A stretch of 64,000 nucleotides of DNA from Minisyncoccota bacterium (GCA_040879725.1 JBBDJV010000020.1:9086-73085); one strand, 5' to 3'. Counted from the first letter of the stretch, positions 20,992-55,117 are shown. The notes: generated from the letters alone by a model not told the origin. Program-made: numbers and translations.

Positions 20992-23232
20992 CTAACGCCG
21001 TAGTGGGTTTCGGCCAGCTTCGATTTCCTCGATGATAAACTCTCCTTCATTCTTGAAATTCGGGTTCAGCTCAACAGCTTTTCGAAGGTCAGCAATAGCG
21101 TTTTGGTTCTGGTCAGTTTCGAGATAACTTCCGGCACGGTACATGTACAACTGAGGGTTGTTAGGGTTCTTAGCAATCTCATTTTCCCAAATAGCAAATA
21201 CTTTGTCATACATTCCCTTCTGAGAATACGCGCGTATCAACCGCTGGTCATATACCAAGTCAGTACCGAAGTGTTCAGTAAGCACCTCTTCTGCTAGTGC
21301 AAACTCATCCGCATAGAGTGCTGAAACCGCATAAATTATTCGGGCAAGCTCATACTCTGGAGCTAGTTCGAATGCTTTTTTGAATTGCGCCAAAGCCTCA
21401 TCGTGCATTCCAGCATTGAGGTAGTTACTTCCCAACTCAAAGATCATTGTTTGCTTTCGTGGAGAGAGCTCAACTGCACGCTGTAGGTACCCGCGCGCTT
21501 CATCGAGAGACCCGAGTGTGTTTAGGTATGAACCGATGAAAATAAAATACCGTGCATCATTTGGTGTTCTCTCTGTTTGTTTTATAAGCTCATTTCGCGC
21601 GAGAGCAAGAAGATTGTTACGTGTATCTTCAGAAACTTGTGAAGACGAACGAACACGGAGCGCCGCTTGCGATATTTGTTCTCGTATCTCTGTTGTTCCG
21701 AAAGACTCATACGAAAGAGCTTTCTCAAAGTTCTCCAAACTTTCCTCTGCCGTGCCACTTTCTGGAGAAAGTGCATTGATAAGTGTCGCGCTCGCATTCA
21801 AAGCTGGAATATTCACAATGTAGAGTGTTGCAATACACGCGACACCGATAACACCCGTAAGTGCGTAGTATGTTTGGTTTTCTTTTATTTCCGGACTATC
21901 TACATGGACAAACTTTCGAGCCGATCCCGCATGTATAAATGCAAAGAGCCCAAAGAGCATCATGTAGCTCACCAAGTTATCAAACACAAAGAGGTTGTGG
22001 AAGAAGTATGCAGTGAGCAAGCCAGTTAGTATTGCACGCTCGTAGACATCGAAATAAAACGTCCTGTCTTCAAGATGTGCCAGTCGTGCAAATCGGTGAC
22101 GCAACCTTTCAAGAAAGTTTGCCGGGACCCATAAGTAGTAGAGCACCGCCACAAAAAGCGACAGGTACGCGAGGAGTCCGAGTATTCCTCCCGCGATCAA
22201 CCAATCAAGAAATACATTGTGTGTGCGGTCAAACCACTGCTCCTGAGCATACATTTGCGGGTGGTAGTATTTGTTGAATACATAATTAAAGTTTTCTTGT
22301 CCCCAGCCCAATACCGGTCGTTCGAGGAACCCTTGCCATGCCATGTTCCACACCAAGAAACGCGCCTTTGTAGTACTTTCTTCAAATGAAATATACGCAA
22401 ATCGGCTAAGTACCGGACTCTGACGTACAAAGTCTGTATTCTTTACCGCCAAAAATCCAAACACCAGCACCGCAGTTGCGACAATAGCACCTACCGAGAA
22501 GAGACGAATCTTTTTATTTGTCTGTCGTGAAATTGCCAAAAGTATAGCCGTCACTCCCACACCTCCTATTAAACCAAGTATCGAACCTCGTGTTGCTGTT
22601 TTGTACAAAATAAAACCTTGTGCAAGTATCGCAATACTATACGCAAAACGAGTCCATTTGACGTTCCAGTTTTGATACATTAAGTACCCGGCAACAAACA
22701 TGTGGAAGAGCATGTAGATAGCGAGATAGGTCGCATTTCCGAGTGTCGCGTCTAGTCGTACACCTCCTTGGTTTATTACGAACTCACCACCTAGCTGACC
22801 AAAGCCATAAAAAACAGTGATGATTGATGCCAAAAGCGACGTATGTAAAAACCTGTTCCACATCTTTTTGGTTTTAAGCATATTCCCCAATACTGTGAAG
22901 TATGCAAAAAGGTGAACAAGAGATACGAAGCCTTCCATACGTTCGTAGTTTGACCAAAAGCTCTTATACGGATATTCACCGAGCGCGTCCGCTACACCTA
23001 TTACCGCAATAAATACGCCAAACAGTACCCATATCCATGAAAACTTCGGTCGAACACTTTTGTCTGTCAGACACAGGATAAGCCAGAGAGCAAAAATAAT
23101 TTCGATTACAATTCTGAAAGTGAAATTCTTACCCGTAATGTACGGAAAGAAGTGCGACCCTGCGACAATTAAGGGAATAAACGGAAGAGCAAAGAGTCCA
23201 GTAAGAATAATAGGCCGAAGTGAATTTTTCAT
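20992..23232 (-). CDS. O-antigen ligase-like (Wzy_C/WaaL/PglL-type) polytopic membrane protein with a C-terminal TPR-repeat domain
   Basis: About 12 TM helices in the N-terminal 450 aa, then TPR-like repeats (AxxxYxxAGxY patterns); 746 aa. Confidence 0.6.
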   Translation of the reverse strand: MKNSLRPIILTGLFALPFIPLIVAGSHFFPYITGKNFTFRIVIEIIFALWLILCLTDKSVRPKFSWIWVLFGVFIAVIGVADALGEYPYKSFWSNYERMEGFVSLVHLFAYFTVLGNMLKTKKMWNRFLHTSLLASIITVFYGFGQLGGEFVINQGGVRLDATLGNATYLAIYMLFHMFVAGYLMYQNWNVKWTRFAYSIAILAQGFILYKTATRGSILGLIGGVGVTAILLAISRQTNKKIRLFSVGAIVATAVLVFGFLAVKNTDFVRQSPVLSRFAYISFEESTTKARFLVWNMAWQGFLERPVLGWGQENFNYVFNKYYHPQMYAQEQWFDRTHNVFLDWLIAGGILGLLAYLSLFVAVLYYLWVPANFLERLRHRFARLAHLEDRTFYFDVYERAILTGLLTAYFFHNLFVFDNLVSYMMLFGLFAFIHAGSARKFVHVDSPEIKENQTYYALTGVIGVACIATLYIVNIPALNASATLINALSPESGTAEESLENFEKALSYESFGTTEIREQISQAALRVRSSSQVSEDTRNNLLALARNELIKQTERTPNDARYFIFIGSYLNTLGSLDEARGYLQRAVELSPRKQTMIFELGSNYLNAGMHDEALAQFKKAFELAPEYELARIIYAVSALYADEFALAEEVLTEHFGTDLVYDQRLIRAYSQKGMYDKVFAIWENEIAKNPNNPQLYMYRAGSYLETDQNQNAIADLRKAVELNPNFKNEGEFIIEEIEAGRNPLRR

Positions 23233-23349: not shown

Positions 23350-24447
23350 CTACTTCTTCCACCCAAGAGCCTCAACAGGGACTATCACGTCTTCATCTAA
23401 ATCCTTTTCCGCAACCAAGCCATAAAGCTTTTCCATGTCTCGGGGCTTAATACCGGTCCCTGGACCTTTTATCGTAAACATATCTTTTGTGAGTACCTCT
23501 CCCTTTTTTATCACTCGCTTTGTCGCAACACTCTTTGCGAGCTTATCTCGTAGTGGCTTCAATTCTTCATGCATTGTTTTCCCTCCCTTTCCAAGAATTT
23601 TCTCAATACGGCGAATTGAATCAACGAGCTCTTTGAGTTCATGGGGTTCAAGAGACCCTGCATGGTCTGAACCTTTCATCTGCTTATCAAGCGTCAAATG
23701 TCGCTCCACTATAACCGCACCTCGTGATACCGCAGCAAGTGTCGGCAACAAATCTATTTCATGCCCGGAATACCCGACTGGCAGTGGATGAAAAGTCCTT
23801 TTCAGTGTATCCATAAATGCAAGCTCAATCATGTGCTCCGGAGACGGATAAAGTGAAAGACAGTGGAACACAACGACGCGGTTATTGTGCTTAAGTACGG
23901 TACTTACCGCATCTTGTATTTCGTCAAATGTATTCATCCCGGTAGAAATAAGTACCGGCTTATTCTTTTTGGCTATATATTCAAGAAGAGGAATATTTAT
24001 TGTATCGGCAGAAGGCACCTTGTAGGCATCTACATCAAATGACTCGAGAAAATCCGCGCTTCCCTTATCCCACGCACTTGCAAAAAAGAGTACTCCGTTT
24101 TTCTCAGCATACTTCTTCAATTCCCTGTACTGATCTTCATTAAACTCAAGTGCATCTCTGTGGGCTCCGTACGTAGGAGCAAATGCATTTGGAGATGTGT
24201 ATGGTTTATCGAGTCCTTCCTTGGTAAGAATTTCTTTCGTGGTACGCTTTTGAAACTTCACCGCGTCCGCGCCTGAATCACGCGCGACATCAATAAGTTT
24301 TTTTGCAATCTCCATATCGCCGTTGTGGTTAATACCCACTTCGGCAATAACAAACACGGGTTCCCCCGGTCCCACGTATTTTTTACCGATCTTTACTTTT
24401 TCAGGATGCCCGTTTAAAAACTGTTTAATTTTATCGAAAATATTCAT
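23350..24447 (-). CDS. neuB: NeuB-family nonulosonic acid synthase (Neu5Ac or KDN 9-phosphate synthase type) with a C-terminal SAF domain
   Basis: IAEVGINHNGD, KFQK and PSADTINIPLL motifs of the NeuB TIM barrel, plus a C-terminal antifreeze-like domain; 365 aa. Confidence 0.8.
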   Translation of the reverse strand: MNIFDKIKQFLNGHPEKVKIGKKYVGPGEPVFVIAEVGINHNGDMEIAKKLIDVARDSGADAVKFQKRTTKEILTKEGLDKPYTSPNAFAPTYGAHRDALEFNEDQYRELKKYAEKNGVLFFASAWDKGSADFLESFDVDAYKVPSADTINIPLLEYIAKKNKPVLISTGMNTFDEIQDAVSTVLKHNNRVVVFHCLSLYPSPEHMIELAFMDTLKRTFHPLPVGYSGHEIDLLPTLAAVSRGAVIVERHLTLDKQMKGSDHAGSLEPHELKELVDSIRRIEKILGKGGKTMHEELKPLRDKLAKSVATKRVIKKGEVLTKDMFTIKGPGTGIKPRDMEKLYGLVAEKDLDEDVIVPVEALGWKK

Positions 24448-24581
24448 GAATTTATACTACCAGAAACTACTTAAGTATGGAAGAAATATACATCCATACT
24501 CTCAAAATGAGTAGCAAATAATGCTTCTACACTGGAAATTTGAATACTACAGGGCAAATTCATGCCTTAACAAAGCCATTT

Positions 24582-24615
24582 AAATGCGCACGCCGGCGTG
24601 CGCATTTATTTTTAT
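24582..24615 (+). repeat. GC-rich palindromic repeat, copy 2 (core 24586-24603), with a T-run; terminator-like
   Basis: AAATGCGCACGCCGGCGTGCGCATTT followed by ATTTTTAT. The flanking 45 bp (24536-24581) match the flank of copy 3 in inverted orientation. Confidence 0.8.
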
Positions 24616-24703
24616 AGAGGTTTAACCTCGTTTGAAATAACTTAATTCAGAAGTCTTACTATATATCGTAAGAAATGCTTTTTGATCAAAGTAACTCAGT
24701 GGC

Positions 24704-25336
24704 TCAAAATAACCTTTGGTGTACCACTCTAAATTTTCTCCATAACCGATCGAAAAAAATGCGCACGTCCCACGTCCTACTGTTTAGCTTTTTAATGGAA
24801 AATTCTTTTGTCTCCGTATTGTATGTAAGGTGAGTAATTGAACACTCTTCCAATACCGGAAAATGATTTAACTGAAACTCGCGCTTCAAAAACGCACCGA
24901 ATGAAAGCGCGTGTCCGAAAATAATAACAGTCCCCTCTCCTTTTGAAATAGCATCAGCCAACACATTTCTAACTCTCATCCCCGCCATTTCCATTGACTC
25001 ACCAGATGGTGGAATAAAAACAAAGTCATCCATCACCTTCTTTTTCCACTCCTTAAACTCTTGCCCTGTATGACTTGTTGTAGGAGTATATTCGGAAAGC
25101 CTCTCATCTGTCTCAATACTCGCTTTTGGTAATGCAAAACGAGCAGTATCAAATGCGCGTGGAAACGGGCTACTTACTACTGTAGCCGGTAGAAGGTGTT
25201 TTATTCGTCTACCCACCACTTTCGCCTGATGCTTCCCAAGTGGGGACAAAGCTACCGCAGATGCTTCGGGGTACGGGAGATTTTCCCGAGACACTGTTTC
25301 TCCATGACGGATTAAATAGATATCAACTTTATTCAT
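24704..25336 (-). CDS. Histidine phosphatase family protein (phosphoglycerate-mutase-like)
   Basis: N-terminal IYLIRHGET catalytic motif. Confidence 0.65.
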   Translation of the reverse strand: MNKVDIYLIRHGETVSRENLPYPEASAVALSPLGKHQAKVVGRRIKHLLPATVVSSPFPRAFDTARFALPKASIETDERLSEYTPTTSHTGQEFKEWKKKVMDDFVFIPPSGESMEMAGMRVRNVLADAISKGEGTVIIFGHALSFGAFLKREFQLNHFPVLEECSITHLTYNTETKEFSIKKLNSRTWDVRIFFDRLWRKFRVVHQRLF

Positions 25337-25407
25337 ATCTATAGTATGAAGTAAAAATCAGAAAAAAACCACTTCGAATGAAGCTTAGCCCAGCAACACA
25401 AAACTCT

Positions 25408-25980
25408 TTACTTTCTAGAGAGGCTAAGTGGGTCTACGCCTTTTACCTCAAGAAGAATATTGCAAAAATCTCTTATCGCGCCGTCTCCGCCCCGCCTATC
25501 CGTAACAACATGCGCAATATCTTTAATTACCGTTTCCGCCTGCTGTGGAGCAACTGCTATGCCAACCTTTTTCATTATTTCCGCGTCACCCACATCGTCC
25601 CCCATGTACGCGCACTCATCCCAAGAAATACCATTTTCACTAAGCCACCCCTCTATCGCCTCTGTTTTGTTTTTTGCCTTGTCACCAGTAAATACGCCAA
25701 GCGGTTTCCAATCTCCATTAAGTACTGAAGGGAGGTTATTTAACTTCACCCCAAAAGAGTCCATGAGTCCGAGCTTCTCGGTACTTACCAATGCCACCAA
25801 AAGACCTGCGGATCGGATAAGTGAAATACCTTGTCCATCAATATGGCTTCGTGTTGCGGTATACTCTCCCTCCTTTGGTCGTATAGAAACAACTTCAGAA
25901 AAAAATACTCCGTAACTATCAAATACAACCGCTTTGAGGTTTTTGATCTTCTCTTTTACGCTAGGGACTACACTATCCAT
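25408..25980 (-). CDS. HAD-IIIA phosphatase of the KdsC type (candidate nonulosonate 9-phosphate phosphatase)
   Basis: VVFDSYGV (DxD-like motif I context), YMGDDVGD and GGDGAIRD are typical of KdsC/KDN-9-P phosphatases. It sits between the NeuB- and NeuA-type genes. Confidence 0.65.
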   Translation of the reverse strand: MDSVVPSVKEKIKNLKAVVFDSYGVFFSEVVSIRPKEGEYTATRSHIDGQGISLIRSAGLLVALVSTEKLGLMDSFGVKLNNLPSVLNGDWKPLGVFTGDKAKNKTEAIEGWLSENGISWDECAYMGDDVGDAEIMKKVGIAVAPQQAETVIKDIAHVVTDRRGGDGAIRDFCNILLEVKGVDPLSLSRK

Positions 25981-26701
25981 TGTTTTTCTTATTATGCTGA
26001 TCCATTAAATACTCATAGAGATCCCAGTCGTTTGGCTGGTTAATTCCGCTATATGCTTCATCCAACATCATCGGGACCATATTTCCACTCATAACTTTTT
26101 TCTCAAGAATTGTTTTTGCCCATATCGTATCAATGTAGCCAACATGCTTATACGCTTTTGGTAGTGACAACTCTTGTTTGTTATATGCTTCATCATTCCC
26201 TAGTTTTATTAATGGTTCAAGAAAGCCAGTTTCTTCATTTACAGTAAACATTTTATACGGGCTTTGCTCGGGACGAGTAACTGTCCGCACAGAGTCTGCT
26301 TCCGGATGCTTCACCAGTAATTCTATTGAGAGATCCACTTGAGCCACAGTTCTCATAGGAGAAGTCGGACGAAGCTGGACAATAATATCGGGCACATACC
26401 CTTCTCTCTCTTTTAGTTCAGTAAGTGCGTGAAAAAACGCATCGAAATCAGTCGAGCTATCCCCGGCTATTTCAGGTGGTCGCAAAAACGGAACTTCAGC
26501 ACCCAAAGTTTTTGATAATTCTGCAATCTCCTCTGAATCAGTAGAAACGATAGTTCGGTCTATATACTGCGAACCAAGCGCATGCTCTACTGAATACTGC
26601 ATAAGAGGCTTACCACAAAGTGGTTTAATATTTTTCTTCGGAATCCGCTTTGACCCCCCACGAGCGGGGATAATAGCGAGAACGTTTAATTCATTTATCA
26701 T
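25973..26701 (-). CDS. neuA: Acylneuraminate cytidylyltransferase (CMP-nonulosonate synthetase)
   Basis: The IPARGGSKRIPKKN motif is characteristic of the CMP-NeuAc/CMP-KDO synthetase family; 242 aa. Confidence 0.8.
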   Translation of the reverse strand: MINELNVLAIIPARGGSKRIPKKNIKPLCGKPLMQYSVEHALGSQYIDRTIVSTDSEEIAELSKTLGAEVPFLRPPEIAGDSSTDFDAFFHALTELKEREGYVPDIIVQLRPTSPMRTVAQVDLSIELLVKHPEADSVRTVTRPEQSPYKMFTVNEETGFLEPLIKLGNDEAYNKQELSLPKAYKHVGYIDTIWAKTILEKKVMSGNMVPMMLDEAYSGINQPNDWDLYEYLMDQHNKKNNG

Positions 26702-26737: not shown

Positions 26738-27964
26738 TTACCTATTTAATGCACTGATTTGATTCACAAGCTCTTGTCTACCTGCGTCAATCCGATCCTT
26801 ATCCCACACCTTCTCCTTAATTTCTTCTCGTTGTTTTTGGTACCCATCACTCCCCGCAAGAGTTTTTTCAAGCGCAACAAGTAATTCATCAAAAGTCATT
26901 ACCTTTTCCCCTGGTGTTATATCATCATACTCAAAATACATCTCGCGCATTTCACTCTTATACTTATCCAAATCATATGCAAAGAAAATTGTCGGCCTAT
27001 CCGCAAAAAGAAAATCAAAAAATACAGAAGAATAGTCGGTAATAAGAACATCTGTTTTTTTCATGATTGGGTAAGGATCTGTCGATGTATCCACGAAGTA
27101 AATTCGCTTAAATTCATGGTTACGTTTCTCCTCGTGGTGGAATTTAATAAATAAATAGGCATCGTTTGTTTCTAAAAAGTTTTCCAACTTGTCAAAATCA
27201 ATACCGCTGTCACGAAGTGGGTTTTGTGTACCATCTCTAAATGTCGGCATATAAAAAATAATCTTTGACCCTTTTTCTTTCAGAGAGACTGCCCGAGTAA
27301 GGTTCAACTCATCTGCCCCAACACTGTGCAAGGGATTATCTTCCAACCATATCGCATTTCTAGGGTAATCAGCTTTAATAATTCTATCCTCTGCAAGCCG
27401 TGACGCAGACATAAAGAGAGGATCCCATAACTTTCCTGGTGATAGGAAATAATTTCCAAAGAAAAACCTTTCTGGACTATAGAGAAAATAAATAAACCTT
27501 TTAAACCCTTTCGAAGCATATACAAAATTATCTTTCTTTGTTCTATGAGAGTCATACATAACCTTCTTGAGCATGATAGCATGCCAAAGATTAACTACCT
27601 TTGCGCCACCGGTAAGAAAATAATTTACACCCAATGGATGGCAGTCTGTAATTACAATTTCAGCGCGCATTGTTAACCACCAACCCTTAAGTGAATTCGC
27701 CTTTTCAGAATAAATGTTTAAATTTCGCAATTGAGATACAATTTTCTCTTCCCTACTCAACCATACAGCAGTAATACCTTCCTGTTCTTTAGCGTACAAA
27801 AAAAAGTATTTTGAGTTATCCGCAAACCGCACCCCTCTCCATGAATCAAATATCCATAATCCTTTTTTTCGAGGAATAAAGGTAAATACCCATCTCATTA
27901 TCAATAATGGAATATTGCGAATGGTAGACGGAATTGCTCTGGCCCAATTGATAATTTTTTTCAT
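26738..27964 (-). CDS. TagB/TagF-family CDP-alcohol (glycerol/ribitol)-phosphotransferase
   Basis: C-terminal signature VLITDYSSVFFDFLFADRPTIFFAYDLDKY matches the TagF catalytic region. Confidence 0.7.
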   Translation of the reverse strand: MKKIINWARAIPSTIRNIPLLIMRWVFTFIPRKKGLWIFDSWRGVRFADNSKYFFLYAKEQEGITAVWLSREEKIVSQLRNLNIYSEKANSLKGWWLTMRAEIVITDCHPLGVNYFLTGGAKVVNLWHAIMLKKVMYDSHRTKKDNFVYASKGFKRFIYFLYSPERFFFGNYFLSPGKLWDPLFMSASRLAEDRIIKADYPRNAIWLEDNPLHSVGADELNLTRAVSLKEKGSKIIFYMPTFRDGTQNPLRDSGIDFDKLENFLETNDAYLFIKFHHEEKRNHEFKRIYFVDTSTDPYPIMKKTDVLITDYSSVFFDFLFADRPTIFFAYDLDKYKSEMREMYFEYDDITPGEKVMTFDELLVALEKTLAGSDGYQKQREEIKEKVWDKDRIDAGRQELVNQISALNR

Positions 27965-28155: not shown

Positions 28156-29535
28156 TTATAATCTCTCAACAAACAGTTGTGCTAATCGCTTTCCCGCATT
28201 TCCATCAAACGGCTCGATAAAACGCTCCACTATTTTCTTTCTCCCTTCAGCGTGTAGTTCTGGAGTTTCCATATACGCGCATACCGCCTTTCCTAATTCT
28301 TCCTGTGCATACGCTACCACCACCCCTTCTTGTTGTACCAGTTCCTCAAAGTGCGTGTATAAATCATAAAACCTCCTTACTGACTCCCAGTAGTTTACTT
28401 GTTCATAAGGAGTACTACCATCAAACGCAATACATACTATCGGACGATTAAGCACCGCTCCGTCTATGGCGATAGTGGAAGCACCTGTCAGCACTACATC
28501 ACTATAGTACAAAATGGAAACCAAATCTTCATTCTGATTCTTCTTTGATTGAGCTTCTTGTGTATTTACATACTTGCCTTTAGTATCCATGACAACGTGC
28601 TGAAGTCCGTCTGCAACATCGTCATTAATCATGAACTTCGGATGTGCACGATAAAGCACCTGGACATCTGGACCAAAGTCGCCTCGTGATACCATTCCTT
28701 CAAAGACTTCTGGGAGTTCAGCCTCGTGCATAAAAAGAAACGTACCCATTGCACCATACGAAAGTATTTTCTTTGCTGAATCTAGGCCTTTTCGTTTACA
28801 AAACTCATCTCGTGACTCCTGTGGTTTAGTAAATCCAAATAGTGCATCGTAGTGTGGTACGCCAAATAGTTCAATAGGTACTGACTCAGGAATAACTTGT
28901 ACTCCCCGCGCCATTTCCTTTAAAAAGGAGTTCTGGAGGAATAGTTTGTCAGGAAGGACGCGAAGCAATCCATGACTTGAGAGGTTGTCCCAGCTACGCA
29001 CACATCCGTATATTGGTATCTTTTTCTGCTTACACGTCTTTGCTATCGGCACATCAAATTCAAAATTAGTAAGTGATAAAGAAAGCAATGCGTCCGGTTT
29101 GTACTTATCAATCAACAGTAAAGCGTTTGTGTCGGAAGAGGTCTTTAGAATACTTTTTCGCAGAAGGTTCTTGTACCACCCAAACTGAGCAAGGGTTTTA
29201 GTATGAACTCTCTTGATATACGTATCGAAAAAACTTGAATCTCCGCGTTTGTATGAACGCATTTTAGACCACAAGTTTGTATGAGTATCCAGTCCACTCC
29301 GCGCAAGAGACATAAGCAGAGACTCAATTTTGGTCGCTCTGGAACGAGTAAAACCTTCCACAGATACATGTGAATATTCTTTATACTTTTCTTGGAAAAA
29401 AGAAACCTTATCGGGCTGAACCAAAAGCACTACTCTGTCATTAACAGTGGCACCGAAGAAAACAGATGCGAAGTCCGTATCAAGTATATTTCGCGCAACA
29501 ATATCTTCCCCGATGGTAACGAAAAAAGTGCTCAT
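28156..29535 (-). CDS. GT-B fold, TagF-like putative glycosyl-/glycerophosphotransferase
   Basis: C-terminal SDVVLTGASTIAIDGAVLNRPIVCIAFD resembles the TagF/GT-B donor-binding region. The assignment is tentative. Confidence 0.35.
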   Translation of the reverse strand: MSTFFVTIGEDIVARNILDTDFASVFFGATVNDRVVLLVQPDKVSFFQEKYKEYSHVSVEGFTRSRATKIESLLMSLARSGLDTHTNLWSKMRSYKRGDSSFFDTYIKRVHTKTLAQFGWYKNLLRKSILKTSSDTNALLLIDKYKPDALLSLSLTNFEFDVPIAKTCKQKKIPIYGCVRSWDNLSSHGLLRVLPDKLFLQNSFLKEMARGVQVIPESVPIELFGVPHYDALFGFTKPQESRDEFCKRKGLDSAKKILSYGAMGTFLFMHEAELPEVFEGMVSRGDFGPDVQVLYRAHPKFMINDDVADGLQHVVMDTKGKYVNTQEAQSKKNQNEDLVSILYYSDVVLTGASTIAIDGAVLNRPIVCIAFDGSTPYEQVNYWESVRRFYDLYTHFEELVQQEGVVVAYAQEELGKAVCAYMETPELHAEGRKKIVERFIEPFDGNAGKRLAQLFVERL

Positions 29536-38161: not shown

Positions 38162-39295
38162 CTATGCAATTTTATGTATTATCTCAACAATATCTTCAAC
38201 TGTTGCTAATCGAGGATTATTCATTGCTCTTTCTGCAGAATATTCATCCAGTATAGCATTTTTCGCATCAGCGATAGAAATACCATAATCACGCAAACGT
38301 GTTGAAACCTGAATTGATTCGAAAAACGATTTAAGGGAATCAGCATAGAGAGCATTTTTGCTTCCTGTTATAAAAGAACCCATCTGCTCTACTAAATTAC
38401 GGACATACAAATAACCCCTTGGGTCACTACATGAATTAAGGGTAACTCCTAGATTAAACATAAAAACCTCGGGAAGAAATAGCGCGACAGCTTTTCCGTG
38501 CGGAATTTTATATCGAGATGTTAAGGGATATGACAGTGCATGAGCTAATGTTGTTTTCGTAATATTGATCGCCTTTCCTGCACTATGTGAACCTTGTGCA
38601 ATATTTACTAAAGCATCTTTATCTCCACCACACGCAAGGTAAAGATTTTTATACAAAAGTTTAAACGCATTTTCTGACAACAAAAGAGATTCCTTACTAG
38701 AATTCACCGACCACCACGACTCAATAGACTGACAAAAAGCGTCCACTCCGCTAGCTGCAGTCACTTCCCACGGAGATGAAAAAAGAAACTGAGGATCAAC
38801 AATTGCGTACTCCGGCAACATTTTTTTATCTGCACAAGAGTATTTTTTACCTTTAATATATAAAACGGCAAAATGGGTTGATTCGCTACCCGAACCGGCT
38901 GTTGTTGGGACCGCAATAACTGGCACAGCACTTGTTTTTTCTATACTAGCACCATAACTCACCTCTGAGATTTGCTCTGGCTTATCAGCAAACAAACTAA
39001 TCAATTTCGCCACATCAATCACACTCCCCCCACCAACTGCAATAATTACAGACGAGGTATGTTCACGATATTTCATAACACCTTTCAAGAGATCATCTTC
39101 GGAAGGGTTGATTGAAAAATCATTAAATACTTCAACTTTATAAGGAGCTACGAGCGACATGATTATTTTACGTGCACCCGATGTCTCAAAAGAATTTTTG
39201 CTCGTGACTAAAAAAATATTTTTTACCTTCTGATCTAAAAGAATTTGCGATAAGTGTTCTGTTGAATTTACACCAAAATAACTTTTTTGATTCAT
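38162..39295 (-). CDS. Group III iron-containing alcohol dehydrogenase (candidate phosphonoacetaldehyde reductase)
   Basis: GGGSVIDVAK NAD motif and the Fe-ADH His/Asp pattern. It lies adjacent to ppd and ppm. Confidence 0.6.
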   Translation of the reverse strand: MNQKSYFGVNSTEHLSQILLDQKVKNIFLVTSKNSFETSGARKIIMSLVAPYKVEVFNDFSINPSEDDLLKGVMKYREHTSSVIIAVGGGSVIDVAKLISLFADKPEQISEVSYGASIEKTSAVPVIAVPTTAGSGSESTHFAVLYIKGKKYSCADKKMLPEYAIVDPQFLFSSPWEVTAASGVDAFCQSIESWWSVNSSKESLLLSENAFKLLYKNLYLACGGDKDALVNIAQGSHSAGKAINITKTTLAHALSYPLTSRYKIPHGKAVALFLPEVFMFNLGVTLNSCSDPRGYLYVRNLVEQMGSFITGSKNALYADSLKSFFESIQVSTRLRDYGISIADAKNAILDEYSAERAMNNPRLATVEDIVEIIHKIA

Positions 39296-39306
39296 CTTTT
39301 CAATAC

Positions 39307-40440
39307 TTATTTTTTATTGAGAAATTCCATCAAATCTTTCTTATTTTGATTGGGAGGAATTGTAGGACGACCTAAATCAGATCGTGCTCCTTTTTTAGTT
39401 CGTATTTCAATAAAAATAGGACCTGTGTTTGGTTTACTATCCTTAAAGATTTGTGAAATAGCACTATCAGTATCTGCGTAATATACTTCTTTATAACCAC
39501 ACGCTCTCGCAATTTCACAAAAATTTACAAAAAATCCAGCTGTTTTTTGACCCCCTACTGATTCATGCGCACCATTATTGAACACAATATGTACAAAATT
39601 ACTTGGATGAAATTGACCTATAGTTGCCATTCCACCCAAATGCATAATTGCAGCACCGTCACCATCAAAACAGTAAATATTTTTATTTGGCTTACTTAGT
39701 GCTAAGCCCAATGCGATTTGGGAAGCATGACCCATTGATCCAATAGTCAGAAAATCACAGGCATGACCCATAGATTTCGCATGTCGTATCTCAAACAATT
39801 CACGGGAAAGTTTTCCTGTTGTTGAAACAATCACAGAATTTTTTGGAATTTCCTCTACCACTGAAGTGAGAGCTTGTTCACGTGTAAGTGTGTATTTCTC
39901 CTCTGACTTTGGCTTTGCATGTTTCTCAGCTGAAAATGTGCCTTTGCGAACAAGCAAAGCATGAGGTCTGCATGTTTTCTTTATAGAATCCAACACAGCA
40001 AGTAACTCTTTCGCTGCTTTTTTTTCATCTGACGATAAAACGGTATGAGGTACATTAATTGCATTAAGCACTGCGGGAGTTACTTCACCCATAGTTATAT
40101 GTTGAGGTTCATCACTCACCCCAGGTTCTCCTCTCCAACCAATAAGTAGCAGTGCTGGCATACAATATACCTTCTCGTCCAGAAGCGAGGTTAGAGGGTT
40201 AACTGCATTTCCTAAACCAGAATTCTGCATATATATGAGAGGAACTTTCCCGGTCGCCAAATGATGTCCAGCAGCGATACCAAGTGCAGAGCCTTCATTC
40301 GCGGCTATGATATGTTGGGATGGGTCCAATGTTACATCTATATGCTCACAGAAATCCTTTAAGAGTGAATCCGGAACTCCGGTAAAAAGGTTTACATCAT
40401 TCTCCAAAAGCAATTTTAGAAAAAAATGGGAAGAAATCAT
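39307..40440 (-). CDS. ppd: Phosphonopyruvate decarboxylase (ThDP-dependent)
   Basis: N-terminal FTGVPDSLLKDFC is the Ppd/AepY signature, with a ThDP-binding GDGAA...NNG region; 377 aa. Confidence 0.75.
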   Translation of the reverse strand: MISSHFFLKLLLENDVNLFTGVPDSLLKDFCEHIDVTLDPSQHIIAANEGSALGIAAGHHLATGKVPLIYMQNSGLGNAVNPLTSLLDEKVYCMPALLLIGWRGEPGVSDEPQHITMGEVTPAVLNAINVPHTVLSSDEKKAAKELLAVLDSIKKTCRPHALLVRKGTFSAEKHAKPKSEEKYTLTREQALTSVVEEIPKNSVIVSTTGKLSRELFEIRHAKSMGHACDFLTIGSMGHASQIALGLALSKPNKNIYCFDGDGAAIMHLGGMATIGQFHPSNFVHIVFNNGAHESVGGQKTAGFFVNFCEIARACGYKEVYYADTDSAISQIFKDSKPNTGPIFIEIRTKKGARSDLGRPTIPPNQNKKDLMEFLNKK

Positions 40441-40445
40441 ACAAA

Positions 40446-41783
40446 TTATTTATTCTTTTCATGATTACCTTCAATCAAGGTCAATATTTCTTTGATAGAC
40501 ATGCAATATTTTTCTGAAGCCTCCTTTGACCTTCCATTTTCTAAAATAGCACGTGCGGTGTTAACCATTGCGGGGTAAGCACTTCGAAGTAAATGATTCG
40601 CATAAATAACTATCCTGAAGCCCATTTTCTCTAAATCTGTCTCGTTAAGATGGTTATATGTTGTAGGGACCGCAACAAGTGGAGTGTTGCTTCCAAACTC
40701 CTTATATTTCTTACAAAACTCTTCTATTTCATCAATTTTTTTATCTTTACTATGTATCATTATTCCATCAGCTCCAGCAGCTATATACGCCTTCGCACGC
40801 TTAAGAGCATCATCTACACCTTTACCTAAAATCAAACTTTCAATACGAGCAATGATCATGAAATCTTCAGAAATACGAGCATTCCGACCCACAGCGAGCT
40901 TCTCACAGAAATTTTTTATACTTTCCAATTCCTGTTTAACAGCAGTACCAAACAAGGAATTTCTCTTCAAACCTTTTTTATCTTCAATAATAACCGCAGA
41001 CACGCCCAGCCGTTCAAGTGTTTTTACTGTATAAGGAAAATGCTCAACTAAGCCACCTGTATCGCCATCGTAAATTACAGGCTTGGTAGTAATTTCCAAA
41101 ATATCATGCAGTGTACCAATACGAGATGTTAGATCTACCAATTCAATATCAGGCTTGCCTTTCATAGTCGAATCAGTAAGGCTACTTAACCACATAAAAT
41201 CAAATTCTCTCACAACACCCTTTTTCTCAATCTGCGTATGTTCAGCTATAAGTGCCGATAAACCACTATGAGCTTCAATACCTTTTACTATTGCCTTTGC
41301 GTCTAACAACCGTCTCAATCTTGATATCCTAACACTTGGTGTAACACCAACTTCTTTTAATGCCTTATTGAGCAATGATGACGAAATACCTTCAGTATAA
41401 TTTGGCTCAACCAATACCCCACCCCATTCTTTTAGTAACTTAACAACCTGTGCACGCACCTCTTTTTGAATCCCCTTTTTCCAATCATCACCATGCACAA
41501 CAACATCAGGTTTAACCTTTCTTAAATTTGAAGAATAGTCGAGTGTTTCTTGAGGGATCACTTCACTGACACCAACTATACTCGAAACAATCTCCTTCCT
41601 CTGTTCATATGATAAAAAAGGTAGTCTTTTGTAGCTTGCGATAGCTTTGTCTGTAAGTAGGCCGACAATAACTCTCCCATGTTTTGCACCCTCACGAATA
41701 ATTTTTAAATGGCCAGGATGTATTAAATCAGCACTCATTCCTATGTATACTATCTTTTCTCCCTTTTGTTTTATTTTATTCAT
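40446..41783 (-). CDS. ppm: Bifunctional cytidylyltransferase / phosphoenolpyruvate mutase fusion
   Basis: N-terminal cytidylyltransferase fold ([15 protein letters not shown] HxGH motif). The C-terminal PEP-mutase/ICL-superfamily barrel carries the PEP-mutase-specific [11 protein letters not shown] motif. Confidence 0.75.
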
Positions 41784-52446: not shown

Positions 52447-53609
52447 ATTTTTTTGATTGAAAGACATAGTTCCATAAAATCTCCAGCAAGTCTATCCCAG
52501 CTATATGTTTCAACCGCAAGTCGTCTCCCTGCTTCGGTAATACTCTTTGCGTGTTCAGGTATTTGCATAAGTTCACTTACCGCGTGAGCAAGCGCCCCGG
52601 GATTATCCGGTTCCACCAAAATACCGGTAACTCGGTCCTCTATAAAATCAACTATCCCACCTACTGGTGTTCCGATAACCGGCAGTCCCGCAGACATTGC
52701 TTCAACAAAAGAATTTCCAAACCCTTCAGACCGGGACGTACGCACAAAAACATCGCTTGCGTGAAGATACTTTGGCAACTCATCTTGCGGAATAGTTGGC
52801 ACAAAATGAACCCTATCAAGTACACGCAACTCTCGCGCTAGCTGTGAAAGCGAGGTTCCCAACGGTCCACTTCCAACAATAAGTACGTGTACTTTTTTAT
52901 TCAGCAGAGGAAGAGTACGTACTAATGTATCAAGTCCGTTTTTATACACCAAACGCGACGTACTCACGAGCACATACGCGGAAGTGGGAATATGAAACTT
53001 CTGACGCAATGCATGCTTTTCCACCTCTGAAGCTCGCGCGGTAAACAGAGAAACATCAACTCCGTTTGGAAGTAGTGTAATAGGCGCTTTGGTGTCAGTC
53101 GCTTCCGCGCGCTTTTTTAAGTAGTTACTGATAACAGTAATGTGTGTTGCGGACCGTATAGGAAAATAGTGGAGCGGTCGAACTAAAAAGCGAAAAAGCA
53201 AATCATTGTTGAATACGTACCGTTTGAGATGTACTTCATCATCTCCCTCTTGCAGTGTGAGAATAAAACTTTTTTTATTTCTCATCCTGTGGAAAAGCGC
53301 TCCCGCAAGTCCTCCGAAACTTGCCATAATACCCCAAACACAATCATATGAAATGTGTCGCGAACGAATGAGAGCAACAAAAAAACCAGTCACCGGAAAT
53401 AGGTATTTATCGATAGGGTGTCCAATACCAACCCTTCGTACAGATACGGAACCGATTTGTTCATGCTTTGAGAGTGCTCGAGAATAGCGCGGAGTAAGCA
53501 TGTCAAAAGCAATACGTTCTTCGGGGATACGTTTTGTTAATTCATGAACCGCAATTTCCGCCCCACCTATGTGGGGAAGATAGTCCGTACTAAAAATTAA
53601 GATTTTCAT
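52443..53609 (-). CDS. GT4 glycosyltransferase
   Basis: N-terminal STDYLPHIGGAE and C-terminal RSEGFGNSFVEAMSAGLPVIGT. Confidence 0.7.
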   Translation of the reverse strand: MKILIFSTDYLPHIGGAEIAVHELTKRIPEERIAFDMLTPRYSRALSKHEQIGSVSVRRVGIGHPIDKYLFPVTGFFVALIRSRHISYDCVWGIMASFGGLAGALFHRMRNKKSFILTLQEGDDEVHLKRYVFNNDLLFRFLVRPLHYFPIRSATHITVISNYLKKRAEATDTKAPITLLPNGVDVSLFTARASEVEKHALRQKFHIPTSAYVLVSTSRLVYKNGLDTLVRTLPLLNKKVHVLIVGSGPLGTSLSQLARELRVLDRVHFVPTIPQDELPKYLHASDVFVRTSRSEGFGNSFVEAMSAGLPVIGTPVGGIVDFIEDRVTGILVEPDNPGALAHAVSELMQIPEHAKSITEAGRRLAVETYSWDRLAGDFMELCLSIKKI

Positions 53610-55117
53610 TCCTCTTCTATAATATCGTACTCTTCGGCTTCTTTCACCTCCTTATGTTTACTAAGTTGTAATGCAAAAACAGGAATAACCGACAGCGCCA
53701 CGAGTCCGATAATCCACCAGACTATACCACCCTCTCTACCCTCTGTCATACTATATGGAACTCCCGCAGTAAGAGTGCTCGTGGAGCCTGTATTTGTCTC
53801 TTCATCGGTTTCACTTATCTCACTATCAGTGTCTTCCTCTGCTTCTGTATTTTGGGGCGCAGGCGCGGAGCCTGCCTCCGCGCCCGCGCTTGGATCAACC
53901 ATTTTCGCAACTGCAACTTTTCTTTGAGTAGGAGCGCTTGCCTGAGGTCTGGAAGATATAGGAACTTCTTTTACCGCTCTGTATTCCGCAACAGGAACAC
54001 CTAGCGTGTCATGAAGCTGTACTGTTTTTCCTTGTGTTATCGGAAAACCAAAAACATATGAACCGAAAGGAGTTGATTGGTATGAAGAAAGAATACTCCT
54101 GGGAGGAAATGCGAACATTTGTTCACCTACATGAATACTCCATGAAGTAATGTCTATTGGATGCTGTGATTCGTTTTTCAACGTAACATACCCGTTAGTG
54201 CCGTACGTAACATCTTCAATAACAATCGTAGGACGCACTACTGTGACAATTACCTGATCCACAGCGTTGTATTCACCGGATGAAACAGAGAGAACGGCGG
54301 TATACTGACCAGGGTAGTGGTAGCGATACAGAATATTTTGTCCCTCAACAAACGTCCCATCTCCCAAATTCCATGTGTACCTAGCAGTTGTAAGTGCTTC
54401 ATTCTGAAACCCGTATCCACGTCCGTGAAAAGTTACCTCGCTTCCCACAAAAACTGTTTTTGAGCTTCCCGCATCTGCGGTTAATCTTTTATTTCCCGGT
54501 TGAAGCAGAGGAACGGAACCATTCCCTTCTCCAGAGTTTTCCTGTGAGCTGTTTTGATTTGTACTTCCTGAATTAGTCTCTTCGTCTGACTCTGTTGTTT
54601 CTTCCGGAAGAGCATGATGGCTATTTGCACTTCCAGGTGTCGGAGCACCCACTCCCCAAGTGCCTTGTAGCATCTGTAGTGTATTACCATCTCCATTTTC
54701 TCCAAGATTTGTGTCATACGTAACCTCGAAGAGAACTGTTTTATCGCCGTCTGCAAGTGAAAGAGTCTCTCCATCATTTTTTAATGAAAACGAACTATCG
54801 AACAACACACCACTCCACCCAGGATTATCACTAAGAAATGTTTGTGCGTCATCCGCAATAACAGCGTAGCTACCTGCTTCCATCTGTGTTCCACCTTGGA
54901 ATTCATGTATACCGTGATACACACCTCCTTCAAGAAAGGTGTACTCGGTAAGTGTGAGTGGTTCTGTTGTGTATACCTCTATCCATTCATGCTTCCCATC
55001 TCCTCCGGGGAAATCATACATAATTTCTGTTATCGAAAGAGACGCGTGAGAAAAAAGCGGAACGATGTACAGTGCGAAACTAAAAATTATTATAAAACTA
55101 TTGCGAGTCCTCACCAT
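53606..55117 (-). CDS. Cell-surface protein: signal peptide, lamin-tail domain, acidic linker, PKD domain, second LTD-like domain, C-terminal TM anchor
   Basis: SITEIMYDFPGGDGKHEWIEVYTTE is the lamin-tail-domain signature. YTWNLGDGT...YPGQYTAVLSVS is a classic PKD motif. The C-terminal WWIIGLVALSVIPVFAL helix is followed by a KHKE basic stop-transfer. Confidence 0.6.
   Translation of the reverse strand: MVRTRNSFIIIFSFALYIVPLFSHASLSITEIMYDFPGGDGKHEWIEVYTTEPLTLTEYTFLEGGVYHGIHEFQGGTQMEAGSYAVIADDAQTFLSDNPGWSGVLFDSSFSLKNDGETLSLADGDKTVLFEVTYDTNLGENGDGNTLQMLQGTWGVGAPTPGSANSHHALPEETTESDEETNSGSTNQNSSQENSGEGNGSVPLLQPGNKRLTADAGSSKTVFVGSEVTFHGRGYGFQNEALTTARYTWNLGDGTFVEGQNILYRYHYPGQYTAVLSVSSGEYNAVDQVIVTVVRPTIVIEDVTYGTNGYVTLKNESQHPIDITSWSIHVGEQMFAFPPRSILSSYQSTPFGSYVFGFPITQGKTVQLHDTLGVPVAEYRAVKEVPISSRPQASAPTQRKVAVAKMVDPSAGAEAGSAPAPQNTEAEEDTDSEISETDEETNTGSTSTLTAGVPYSMTEGREGGIVWWIIGLVALSVIPVFALQLSKHKEVKEAEEYDIIEEE

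Follow-up and report, generated by a model that had tools for sequence, protein, structure and literature searches.

We analysed a 64,000-nucleotide stretch of DNA from a Minisyncoccota bacterium (GCA_040879725.1, JBBDJV010000020.1:9086-73085; hereafter the window), focusing on four consecutive genes at positions 23350-26701 that are predicted to make an activated nonulosonic acid. The 9-phosphate route to such sugars is best known from animals, Bacteroides and some algae. A sequence-only reading of the window had matched three of the genes to the synthase, 9-phosphate phosphatase and CMP-transferase of a pathway to 2-keto-3-deoxy-D-glycero-D-galacto-nononic acid (KDN) or N-acetylneuraminic acid (Neu5Ac), and had placed a histidine phosphatase directly beside them. 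All four open reading frames (ORFs) are present, all on the minus strand:

23350-24447, minus strand: predicted nonulosonate-9-phosphate synthase of the NANS/KDN-9-phosphate type (NeuB TIM barrel plus SAF domain), 365 aa; Pfam NeuB 269.7 bits, SAF 23 bits.
24704-25336, minus strand: histidine phosphatase of branch 1, 210 aa; Pfam His_Phos_1 87.9 bits.
25408-25980, minus strand: KdsC-fold (C0) HAD protein with the motif I sequence D-S-Y, 190 aa; HAD Hydrolase_3.
25973-26701, minus strand: predicted CMP-nonulosonate synthetase (cytidylyltransferase), 242 aa; Pfam CTP_transf_3 86.7 bits.

Domain E-values of 1e-24 to 1e-80 exclude chance matches for the module proteins. The cytidylyltransferase and HAD genes overlap by 8 nt, and the set, which is found again in related genomes (loci with L numbers below), lies in a single-strand run of surface-glycan genes. 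Family scans, which took in nearly all window ORFs of 150 aa or more, revealed no NeuC/Epimerase_2, NanE or NanK, none of the dehydratases, aminotransferases or acetyltransferases of pseudaminic or legionaminic acid synthesis (PseB/C/G/H, LegB/C), no kdsA- or kdsB-type gene and no gene that would make N-acetylmannosamine (ManNAc) or its 6-phosphate (ManNAc-6-P). The lack of a NeuC-type epimerase and of Pse/Leg tailoring genes, noted earlier for the locus alone, thus holds for the whole window; in the close-clade loci, too, NeuC, NanE, NanK and ManA had no match, and no Pse/Leg genes were seen. With a probability of about 0.6, we read the locus as the sugar-activation module of a surface-glycan cluster in Candidatus Paceibacterota, of the candidate phyla radiation (CPR), which would produce a CMP-nonulosonate by the 9-phosphate route, probably with the histidine phosphatase as the 9-phosphatase. 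What the analysis establishes is which genes are present, the families and clades to which they belong, the state of their motifs and the statistics of their synteny; the enzymatic activities, which sugar is made and how the two phosphatases share the work are predictions built on these.

Judged by its sequence, the synthase is of the phosphosugar (NANS/KDN-9-P) class and is not a NeuB, LegI or PseI; we infer that it condenses phosphoenolpyruvate (PEP) with either mannose 6-phosphate (Man-6-P) or ManNAc-6-P. Its TIM barrel matches PF03102 (269.7 bits) over profile positions 1-240 of 241, and its scores fall below the cut-offs of both relevant NCBIfam equivalogs, NeuB (336.6 against 399.65) and PseI (230.3 against 340.25). 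It is 44-46% identical to fish NANS, 38% to LegI, 35% to the Kdn-9-P synthetase of the alga Prymnesium parvum, 32% to Neisseria meningitidis NeuB (NmNeuB) and 26% to PseI. Close relatives (59-89% identity) all come from Patescibacteria or metagenome contigs, and the first named relative beyond the metagenome-assembled genomes (MAGs) of Patescibacteria is fish NANS, at 46%; one relative carries the label N-acylneuraminate-9-phosphate synthase in the public record. All 165 plasmid-borne matches of the neuB, legI or pseI type are less than 41% identical to the synthase.

We placed the enzyme in a neighbour-joining tree (349 trimmed columns) whose references included fish NANS, the P. parvum Kdn-9-P synthetase (sequence taken from the PMC6200933 supplement), a LegI encoded in a legB-legC-neuC-neuB operon, a PseI encoded in a pseG-pseH-pseI operon, and N. 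meningitidis NeuB and Bacillus subtilis SpsE from solved structures, among others. BT1714, of the Bacteroides thetaiotaomicron KDN pathway, was not among the sequences, and Bacteroides-type synthases were represented by metagenome loci adjoining phosphatases like BT1713, the KDN-9-phosphatase of that pathway. A bipartition with 94% bootstrap support unites the window clade, every HAD-adjacent CPR synthase, fish NANS and the Prymnesium enzyme, and separates them from NeuB, LegI, PseI and SpsE; the same topology was obtained when more metagenome sequences were added. As its immediate sisters, the window clade has synthases that precede HADs with 41-44% identity to BT1713. A 514-aa ORF with a NeuB-like C-terminal part, unannotated as a gene (L084 3287-4831; NZ_CP141089.1, an Escherichia coli KE47 chromosome filed as a plasmid), is also placed on the NANS side, where it has a long branch.

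The same division is visible residue by residue. Eleven alignment columns separate the two classes (K67, R68, T92, Y93, G94, H96, R97, W126, D148, G228 and K302), and the class-specific residues include the motifs KFQKR, TYGxHR (alpha2-beta2) and SGHE; we derived this signature here, except for the published E134D change (PMC8208679). The window synthase scores 11/11, the Prymnesium enzyme 10/11 and fish NANS 8/11, whereas NeuB, LegI, PseI and SpsE, the references that use unphosphorylated sugars, score 0/11. The E134D change, typical of NANS, corresponds to D148 of the window synthase, and the alpha2-beta2 region, in which the TYGxHR block sits, has been linked to the substrate phosphate (PMC8208679); the extra basic residues of the signature are plausible phosphate ligands. 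Among the NeuB, LegI, PseI and SpsE references, all those with a natural residue at the SAF-domain position of Arg314 retain this arginine (the NmNeuB chain 4ipi reads Ala), whereas the position is Gly in the window synthase, Gly or Ser across its clade and Gly in fish NANS. Among the 150 nearest cluster representatives at 50% identity, the signature is bimodal, falling into about 67 sequences of phosphosugar type and about 65 of Leg/Neu type, which indicates that phosphosugar synthases are common in metagenomes. The earlier preference for a Man-6-P or ManNAc-6-P substrate over the NeuC/NeuB route is thus borne out by the tree, in which the synthase stands with NANS and Kdn-9-P synthetase and not with PseI or LegI, by the full signature and by the absence of epimerase and tailoring genes.

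Related loci offer a hint as to the sugar. Seven of them encode stand-alone cupins of the kind found in type-II phosphomannose isomerases, most of 110-125 aa (L009 6808-7185; L094 3360-3692; L096 939-1283; L097 2470-2829; L098 1126-1494; L100 6812-7279, 155 aa; L106 4529-4906). Each of the seven can be aligned to ManC of E. coli (residues 365-478), and three of the seven, when scanned, matched PF01050, the phosphomannose-isomerase domain of type-II phosphomannose isomerase/GDP-mannose pyrophosphorylase enzymes, at 61-73 bits (cut-off 23.6). These cupins would be likely to supply Man-6-P from fructose-6-P, and the presence of such a source in seven related loci favours KDN over Neu5Ac. We therefore put KDN as the product at slightly better than even odds; Neu5Ac is considerably less probable, and some other sugar a shade less probable again.

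The alternative that survives best keeps the same architecture and has Neu5Ac as its product, made by the eukaryote-like route from ManNAc-6-P that comes from elsewhere in the genome or from the host. Beyond the CPR MAGs, the synthase's closest named relative is vertebrate NANS, an enzyme with a preference for ManNAc-6-P (Km values in PMC6200933), and the window lacks a phosphomannose isomerase. In a more distant CPR locus, L178, moreover, a Kdn-9-P-synthetase-like enzyme is accompanied by an APH-family kinase and a protein with a weak Epimerase_2 match, recalling GNE. These arguments are met by the cupins, by the absence of NeuC, GNE, NanE and NanK from the window and from every close-clade locus, and by the BT1713-like KDN-9-phosphatases that adjoin the nearest sisters of the window clade; we regard the Neu5Ac alternative as unlikely, although it is the one to be taken most seriously. 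The P. parvum Kdn-9-P synthetase accepts only Man-6-P (PMC6200933). In L178 (2491-7801) we observed a short Prymnesium-like synthase, a cytidylyltransferase, two HADs (one intact, the other missing the second motif I aspartate discussed below), the kinase and the weak Epimerase_2 protein; this may be a GNE-like epimerase and kinase route to ManNAc-6-P, in which case a Neu5Ac route would also exist in the CPR group.

We next consider the two phosphatase candidates, beginning with the HAD protein. Its best NCBIfam matches are KdsC (71 bits against a cut-off of 208), the Bacteroides KDN-9-phosphatase (KDN-9-PPhBT; 70.3 against 180) and the KdsC subfamily TIGR01670 (65.5 against 106.95). It is 28-34% identical to BT1713 and KdsC proteins (28% to BT1713) and groups with CPR MAG and metagenome sequences in a clade apart from both (96% bootstrap); members of this clade share a conserved stretch of about 14 extra residues (NNLPSVxxGxWxP) between motifs II and III, absent from KdsC and BT1713. 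By these sequence measures, it is an equivalog of neither KdsC nor the Bacteroides KDN-9-phosphatase. Its model (predicted local distance difference test score, pLDDT, 93.3) is a capless C0 Rossmann fold, with template-modelling (TM) scores of 0.80-0.88 to E. coli YrbI/KdsC and others and of 0.86 to the C-domain of mouse CMP-sialic acid synthetase (3ewi). When aligned to KdsC structures, motif I reads V-V-F-D-S-Y-G-V (D21-S22-Y23), against D-V/I-D-G-V in KdsC and BT1713. The nucleophile Asp21, the motif II Ser/Thr, the motif III Lys and the motif IV DDxxD are retained, and the position of the second aspartate (Asp+2) is occupied by a tyrosine encoded by TAC. The Asp+2 of HAD phosphatases is the general acid/base, and its loss makes ordinary HAD phosphatase turnover unlikely.

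This loss is shared by a group of relatives. Among 65 homologues from the databases, 47 keep the DxD motif, 15 have lost Asp+2 (replaced by Tyr, Phe, Leu, Val or Ile), one has lost the nucleophile too and two are too short to align; the Asp+2-less proteins form essentially one subclade. Their mean identity is 56%, compared with 67% for the neighbouring synthases and about 60% for the cytidylyltransferases; this conservation marks them as functional proteins and not decaying genes, and a relative-rate comparison of the sequences shows that the crippled HAD is still under constraint. The divergence ratio relative to the synthase (1.38, against 1.18 for intact HADs) differs too little, and too heterogeneously, for relaxed selection on these proteins to be claimed. 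Genes in the order cytidylyltransferase then HAD, the stop codon of the first overlapping the start codon of the second, occur in the window, L001, L003, L005, L006, L176 and L179. According to PMC8636478, citing Oschlies et al. (2009), these sugar phosphatases have a homologue in the C-domain of vertebrate CMP-sialic acid synthetase, a domain that shows no detectable phosphatase activity and acts as an oligomerisation platform for the catalytic N-domain. By analogy, the HAD is probably a non-catalytic or very slow partner of the cytidylyltransferase.

The adjacent histidine phosphatase, by contrast with the HAD, keeps all its catalytic residues, and its position at 24704-25336 agrees with the sequence-only reading. 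R10, H11, R60, E82 and H142 are invariant among its homologues, and every full-length member retains RH[GA], SPxxR, the Glu and [SG]HAL. The folds nearest to its model (pLDDT 82) are phosphoserine phosphatase, mycobacterial glucosyl-3-phosphoglycerate phosphatase, PhoE and CobC, that is, small-molecule phosphatases and not true (cofactor-dependent) mutases. A word-indexed search returned three relatives, and a hidden Markov model iterated over the related loci brought the set to 11 loci (the window, L088, L009, L092, L094, L096, L100, L174, L175, L176 and L179). In all 11 the protein belongs to a nonulosonate module of the window's synthase subclade, and none was found outside such modules in the loci examined; wherever both flanks are in view, it lies between the cytidylyltransferase and the synthase.

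The distribution of the histidine phosphatase follows the state of the HAD. Five of its 11 loci have an Asp+2-less HAD, four have none (L088, L094, L096 and L100) and two are ambiguous. Viewed from the HAD side, the histidine phosphatase accompanies 5 of 9 Asp+2-less loci, 0 of 21 loci with only intact HADs, and the single ambiguous locus L009, which has one intact and one N-terminally truncated HAD (Fisher p = 0.0009, or 0.004 with L009 counted against the association). When Asp+2-less HADs were chosen blind to their neighbours, four of six loci (L174, L175, L176 and L179) had an adjacent histidine phosphatase. L179 reproduces the exact synteny of the window (TagF, cytidylyltransferase, HAD with DSL, histidine phosphatase, synthase, Wzy-TPR, murB and secA). 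In L088, a sister locus with an 89% identical synthase, the HAD is absent, the histidine phosphatase occupies the same slot and the order is otherwise collinear. A second, intact HAD is present in L174 and L178, and the second match in L176 is weak (48 bits; DADGV).

On the strength of synteny in 11 loci and complementarity with the HAD state, the histidine phosphatase is probably the working KDN/Neu5Ac-9-phosphate phosphatase. The simplest reading is non-orthologous displacement, in which, within one Paceibacterota lineage, the task of removing the 9-phosphate passed to the histidine phosphatase; the HAD would then have lost its acid/base residue and been either kept for a non-catalytic role with the cytidylyltransferase or deleted. 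More tentatively, and at somewhat less than even odds, this branch-1 enzyme may represent a third class of nonulosonate-9-phosphate phosphatase, not homologous to the NANP-type and KdsC-type HADs that form the other two, and may have displaced the ancestral KdsC-type enzyme in that lineage. The window and four other loci would be the intermediate state, with a pseudo-phosphatase HAD under purifying selection, and the sister genomes the HAD-deleted end state. Such a pseudo-phosphatase would have arisen in bacteria independently of the catalytically silent C-domain that it parallels in the vertebrate CMP-sialic acid synthetase. The literature that was searched yielded no description of a histidine phosphatase acting on Neu5Ac-9-P or of CPR nonulosonate pathways; the 9-phosphate pathway itself is of a known kind, and what is new is that a histidine phosphatase and a pseudo-phosphatase HAD occur together, a pairing likewise not described in that literature.

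In a second alternative, the HAD is the working KDN/Neu5Ac-9-phosphate phosphatase even without Asp+2, and the histidine phosphatase acts at some other step, for example on a different sugar phosphate, on an intermediate of phosphonate or teichoic-like type, or in housekeeping. The retained catalytic residues of the HAD and its conservation at about the rate of the cytidylyltransferase speak for this, as do the three Asp+2-less loci that have no histidine phosphatase and the intact members of the same HAD clade, which are the sole phosphatase candidates in most CPR loci. However, the tyrosine at Asp+2, like the Phe, Leu, Val or Ile of the homologues, leaves no group equivalent to the general acid/base; the sister genome deleted its HAD and kept the histidine phosphatase in the same slot; and the histidine phosphatase never occurs outside nonulosonate modules in the loci examined. 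We hold this alternative to be improbable, a little more so than a Neu5Ac product.

Several observations count against the reading that we favour, in which the histidine phosphatase removes the 9-phosphate from a sugar that is probably KDN. The synthase tree is a simple neighbour-joining tree from which BT1714 is absent, and the identity of the synthase to the characterised P. parvum enzyme (35%) is not above that to LegI (38%). No phosphomannose isomerase, nor a cupin of the kind described above, was found in the 64-kb window. The HAD keeps its nucleophile, Mg-binding acids and motif III Lys and evolves about as slowly as the cytidylyltransferase, and some residual catalysis is possible from its sequence. 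The Asp+2-less loci L006, L177 and L002 have no histidine phosphatase, and both phosphatases are missing from the close loci L089, L091 and L097. As the Asp+2-less HADs make up essentially one subclade, the Fisher p value overstates the independence of the loci, and the association may rest on one or a few evolutionary events. A strict rule that the histidine phosphatase always compensates for a crippled HAD is broken by these six loci, and we rejected it. Human NANP is reportedly not essential. In Prymnesium no dedicated phosphatase was found (PMC6200933), and the phosphatase-free loci fit both of these cases.

Taken together, these data divide the trio that had been proposed: the class of its synthase is supported, the assignment of the KdsC-type HAD as the 9-phosphate phosphatase is not (Asp+2 is lost, the equivalog cut-offs are missed and the histidine phosphatase is the better candidate), and the cytidylyltransferase proves generic, leaving the sugar unspecified. 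The best structural matches of the last enzyme are the bacterial CMP-Neu5Ac synthetases 6ifd (102 bits) and 1eyr (70 bits), followed by mouse CMAS 1qwj (55 bits); it scores 143.2 against the PseF cut-off of 205.7 and matches KdsB models weakly. On this sequence evidence, it is a generic CMP-nonulosonate synthetase and does not pinpoint the sugar.

A third alternative, that this is a canonical NeuB, LegI or PseI pathway acting on an unphosphorylated sugar, with epimerase and tailoring genes elsewhere and the phosphatases as unrelated passengers, is very improbable. NeuB_NnaB is the top NCBIfam match by score (336.6 bits), and several CPR loci (L001, L014 and L111) have separate Leg-type sets with a second synthase; yet the score lies below the NeuB and PseI cut-offs, the 94% split sets the synthase apart from NeuB, LegI and PseI, it has 0 of the 11 signature residues in common with those enzymes and is missing Arg314, and a phosphatase gene stands beside the synthase in many independent loci. 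Finally, that the HAD is the KDO-8-phosphate (3-deoxy-D-manno-octulosonate 8-phosphate) phosphatase of a lipopolysaccharide (LPS) pathway, as its best structural and sequence neighbours KdsC/YrbI might suggest, is effectively excluded by the KdsC score of 71 bits against 208, the separate HAD clade (96% bootstrap), the lack of kdsA- or kdsB-type genes in the window and the weak KdsB match of the cytidylyltransferase, the constant linkage of the HAD gene to a NANS-type synthase and a cytidylyltransferase, and the lack of LPS that is generally held to characterise Patescibacteria.

The genes surrounding the module, and a short palindrome within it, are as follows:

26738-27964, minus strand: TagF/TagB-like transferase 1 (Glyphos_transf); Pfam PF04464 194 bits.
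28156-29535, minus strand: TagF/TagB-like transferase 2; Pfam PF04464 43 bits.
20992-23232, minus strand: Wzy_C (O-antigen ligase/polymerase-like) membrane protein with C-terminal TPR repeats, downstream of the synthase; Pfam Wzy_C 74.5 bits plus TPRs.
24581-24608, no strand assigned: perfect palindrome with a 12-bp stem in the 256-nt gap between the histidine phosphatase and synthase genes, with a T-run on the plus strand (terminator scan and sequence).
40446-41783, minus strand: PEP mutase with an N-terminal cytidylyltransferase domain.
39307-40440, minus strand: phosphonopyruvate decarboxylase.
38162-39295, minus strand: Fe-alcohol dehydrogenase.

Directly upstream of the cytidylyltransferase, a TagF-like gene is found in most related loci. 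Transferase 2 is 76% identical to its counterpart in the sister locus L088 and weakly matches the Tannerella BFO_1060 glycosyltransferase family (43.4 bits against a cut-off of 200). Both window Glyphos_transf proteins have the HP motif, and a D/E-D/E-G motif was not found in them. In Tannerella forsythia, genetic evidence supports TagB-like proteins as the Pse/Leg transferases (PMC5420450), and we infer that both window proteins are candidate CMP-nonulosonate transferases. The favoured pathway would thus begin with the NANS-type synthase joining PEP to a hexose 6-phosphate, most likely Man-6-P to give KDN-9-P and less likely ManNAc-6-P to give Neu5Ac-9-P. Removal of the 9-phosphate, most probably by the histidine phosphatase, would be followed by activation to the CMP-sugar by the cytidylyltransferase, and the two adjacent TagB/TagF-like proteins would then pass the sugar to a glycan. 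Throughout, the HAD would persist as the cytidylyltransferase's partner, non-catalytic or very slow, in the manner of the vertebrate CMP-sialic acid synthetase C-domain.

Between the histidine phosphatase and synthase genes, the related loci differ in content. A conserved protein family of 350-394 aa without a Pfam match is encoded there (L088 10826-11962; L096 2725-3768; L176 8929-10113; L002 1-947), and in L088, L096 and L176 this opposite-strand gene fills the gap, with a bidirectional terminator after it in L088. Between this family and the weak Epimerase_2 protein of L178 there is a faint similarity (23% over 352 aa), and no copy of the family is present in the window, in which the hairpin at 24581-24608 may be the orphan terminator of a deleted gene. 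A promoter scan found sites no more frequently than expected by chance. In three loci, the slot between cytidylyltransferase and synthase, which elsewhere holds the phosphatases, is taken by a methyltransferase of 380-405 aa (L089 8790-9938; L006 10544-11710; L097 3548-4765). A Wzy_C-TPR gene after the synthase recurs in L088, L089, L006, L009, L094, L095, L097, L106 and L179.

The glycan run of the window also holds methyltransferases, a GT2, a PMT_2-like protein, a flippase, GT4s and the phosphonate module (38162-41783, minus strand), and is flanked by murB, secA and the Wzy_C-TPR protein. No 2-aminoethylphosphonate transaminase was seen with the phosphonate module, whose content suggests a decoration of the 2-hydroxyethylphosphonate type. 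In two relatives, a sulfotransferase and a fused ATP sulfurylase/adenosine 5'-phosphosulfate kinase lie beside the nonulosonate module (L174 1667-4168; L176 4108-4911 and 11305-12972). Different anionic decorations, with sulfate genes in the relatives and phosphonate genes in the window, appear to have been exchanged within one and the same locus frame. Where the glycan locus ends, a homologue of TraD-like coupling proteins (55098-56993, minus strand) adjoins a surface protein with Lamin-tail and PKD domains (53606-55117, minus strand).

The surface chemistry of CPR bacteria is hardly known at all and probably mediates attachment to their hosts. If the proposed reading is true, the 9-phosphate route is common in these ultra-small bacteria. 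It also bears on the puzzle of the missing phosphatase, the dedicated enzyme being dispensable or unidentified in humans and Prymnesium: the histidine phosphatase is a concrete candidate that may do the job. The related loci form a natural series, from an intact HAD through a crippled HAD with a histidine phosphatase to a histidine phosphatase alone, which should be useful for understanding how a pseudo-enzyme domain turns into a structural partner, a path that has been proposed for the C-domain of the vertebrate CMP-sialic acid synthetase.

How the module relates to known systems can be set out one system at a time. With the canonical NeuC/NeuB/NeuA, LegB/C/G/I/F and PseB/C/F/G/H/I pathways it shares the NeuB TIM-barrel fold and the CTP_transf_3 family; it differs in that its synthase falls on the opposite side of the tree with none of their signature residues in common, and in that the window has phosphatases and lacks epimerase and tailoring genes. 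The TagB-like transferases of T. forsythia (PMC5420450) find a counterpart in the two Glyphos_transf proteins directly upstream of the cytidylyltransferase, one of which weakly matches the BFO_1060 family, although its score is far below the family cut-off (43 against 200). With the Kdn pathway of P. parvum (a Kdn-9-P synthetase plus a CMP-Kdn synthetase; PMC6200933), the likeness lies in the 10/11 signature, the shared side of the tree and the alga's lack of an identified dedicated phosphatase homologue; unlike the window synthase, the algal enzyme has no SAF domain, is 35% identical and has the short CPR synthases of L005 and L178 as its close relatives.

The KDN pathway of B. thetaiotaomicron (BT1714, BT1713 and a CMP-KDN synthetase) has the same layout of a phosphosugar-class synthase, a C0 KdsC-fold HAD and a cytidylyltransferase with no NeuC, and the nearest sisters of the window synthase clade neighbour BT1713-like phosphatases. 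The window HAD, however, is 28% identical to BT1713, falls in a separate clade and lacks Asp+2, and a histidine phosphatase has been added. From the vertebrate pathway (GNE, NANS, NANP and a two-domain CMP-sialic acid synthetase) the window differs in having no GNE, in having a histidine phosphatase and not a NANP-type HAD as its phosphatase candidate, and in encoding the cytidylyltransferase and HAD separately, the former being nearer to bacterial 6ifd (102 bits) than to mouse CMAS (55 bits). Yet the synthase is 44-46% identical to fish NANS, with D148, G228, K67, TYGxH and K302 in common and no Arg314, and the overlapping cytidylyltransferase and HAD genes mirror, as two proteins, the order of N-domain before C-domain in the vertebrate CMP-sialic acid synthetase.

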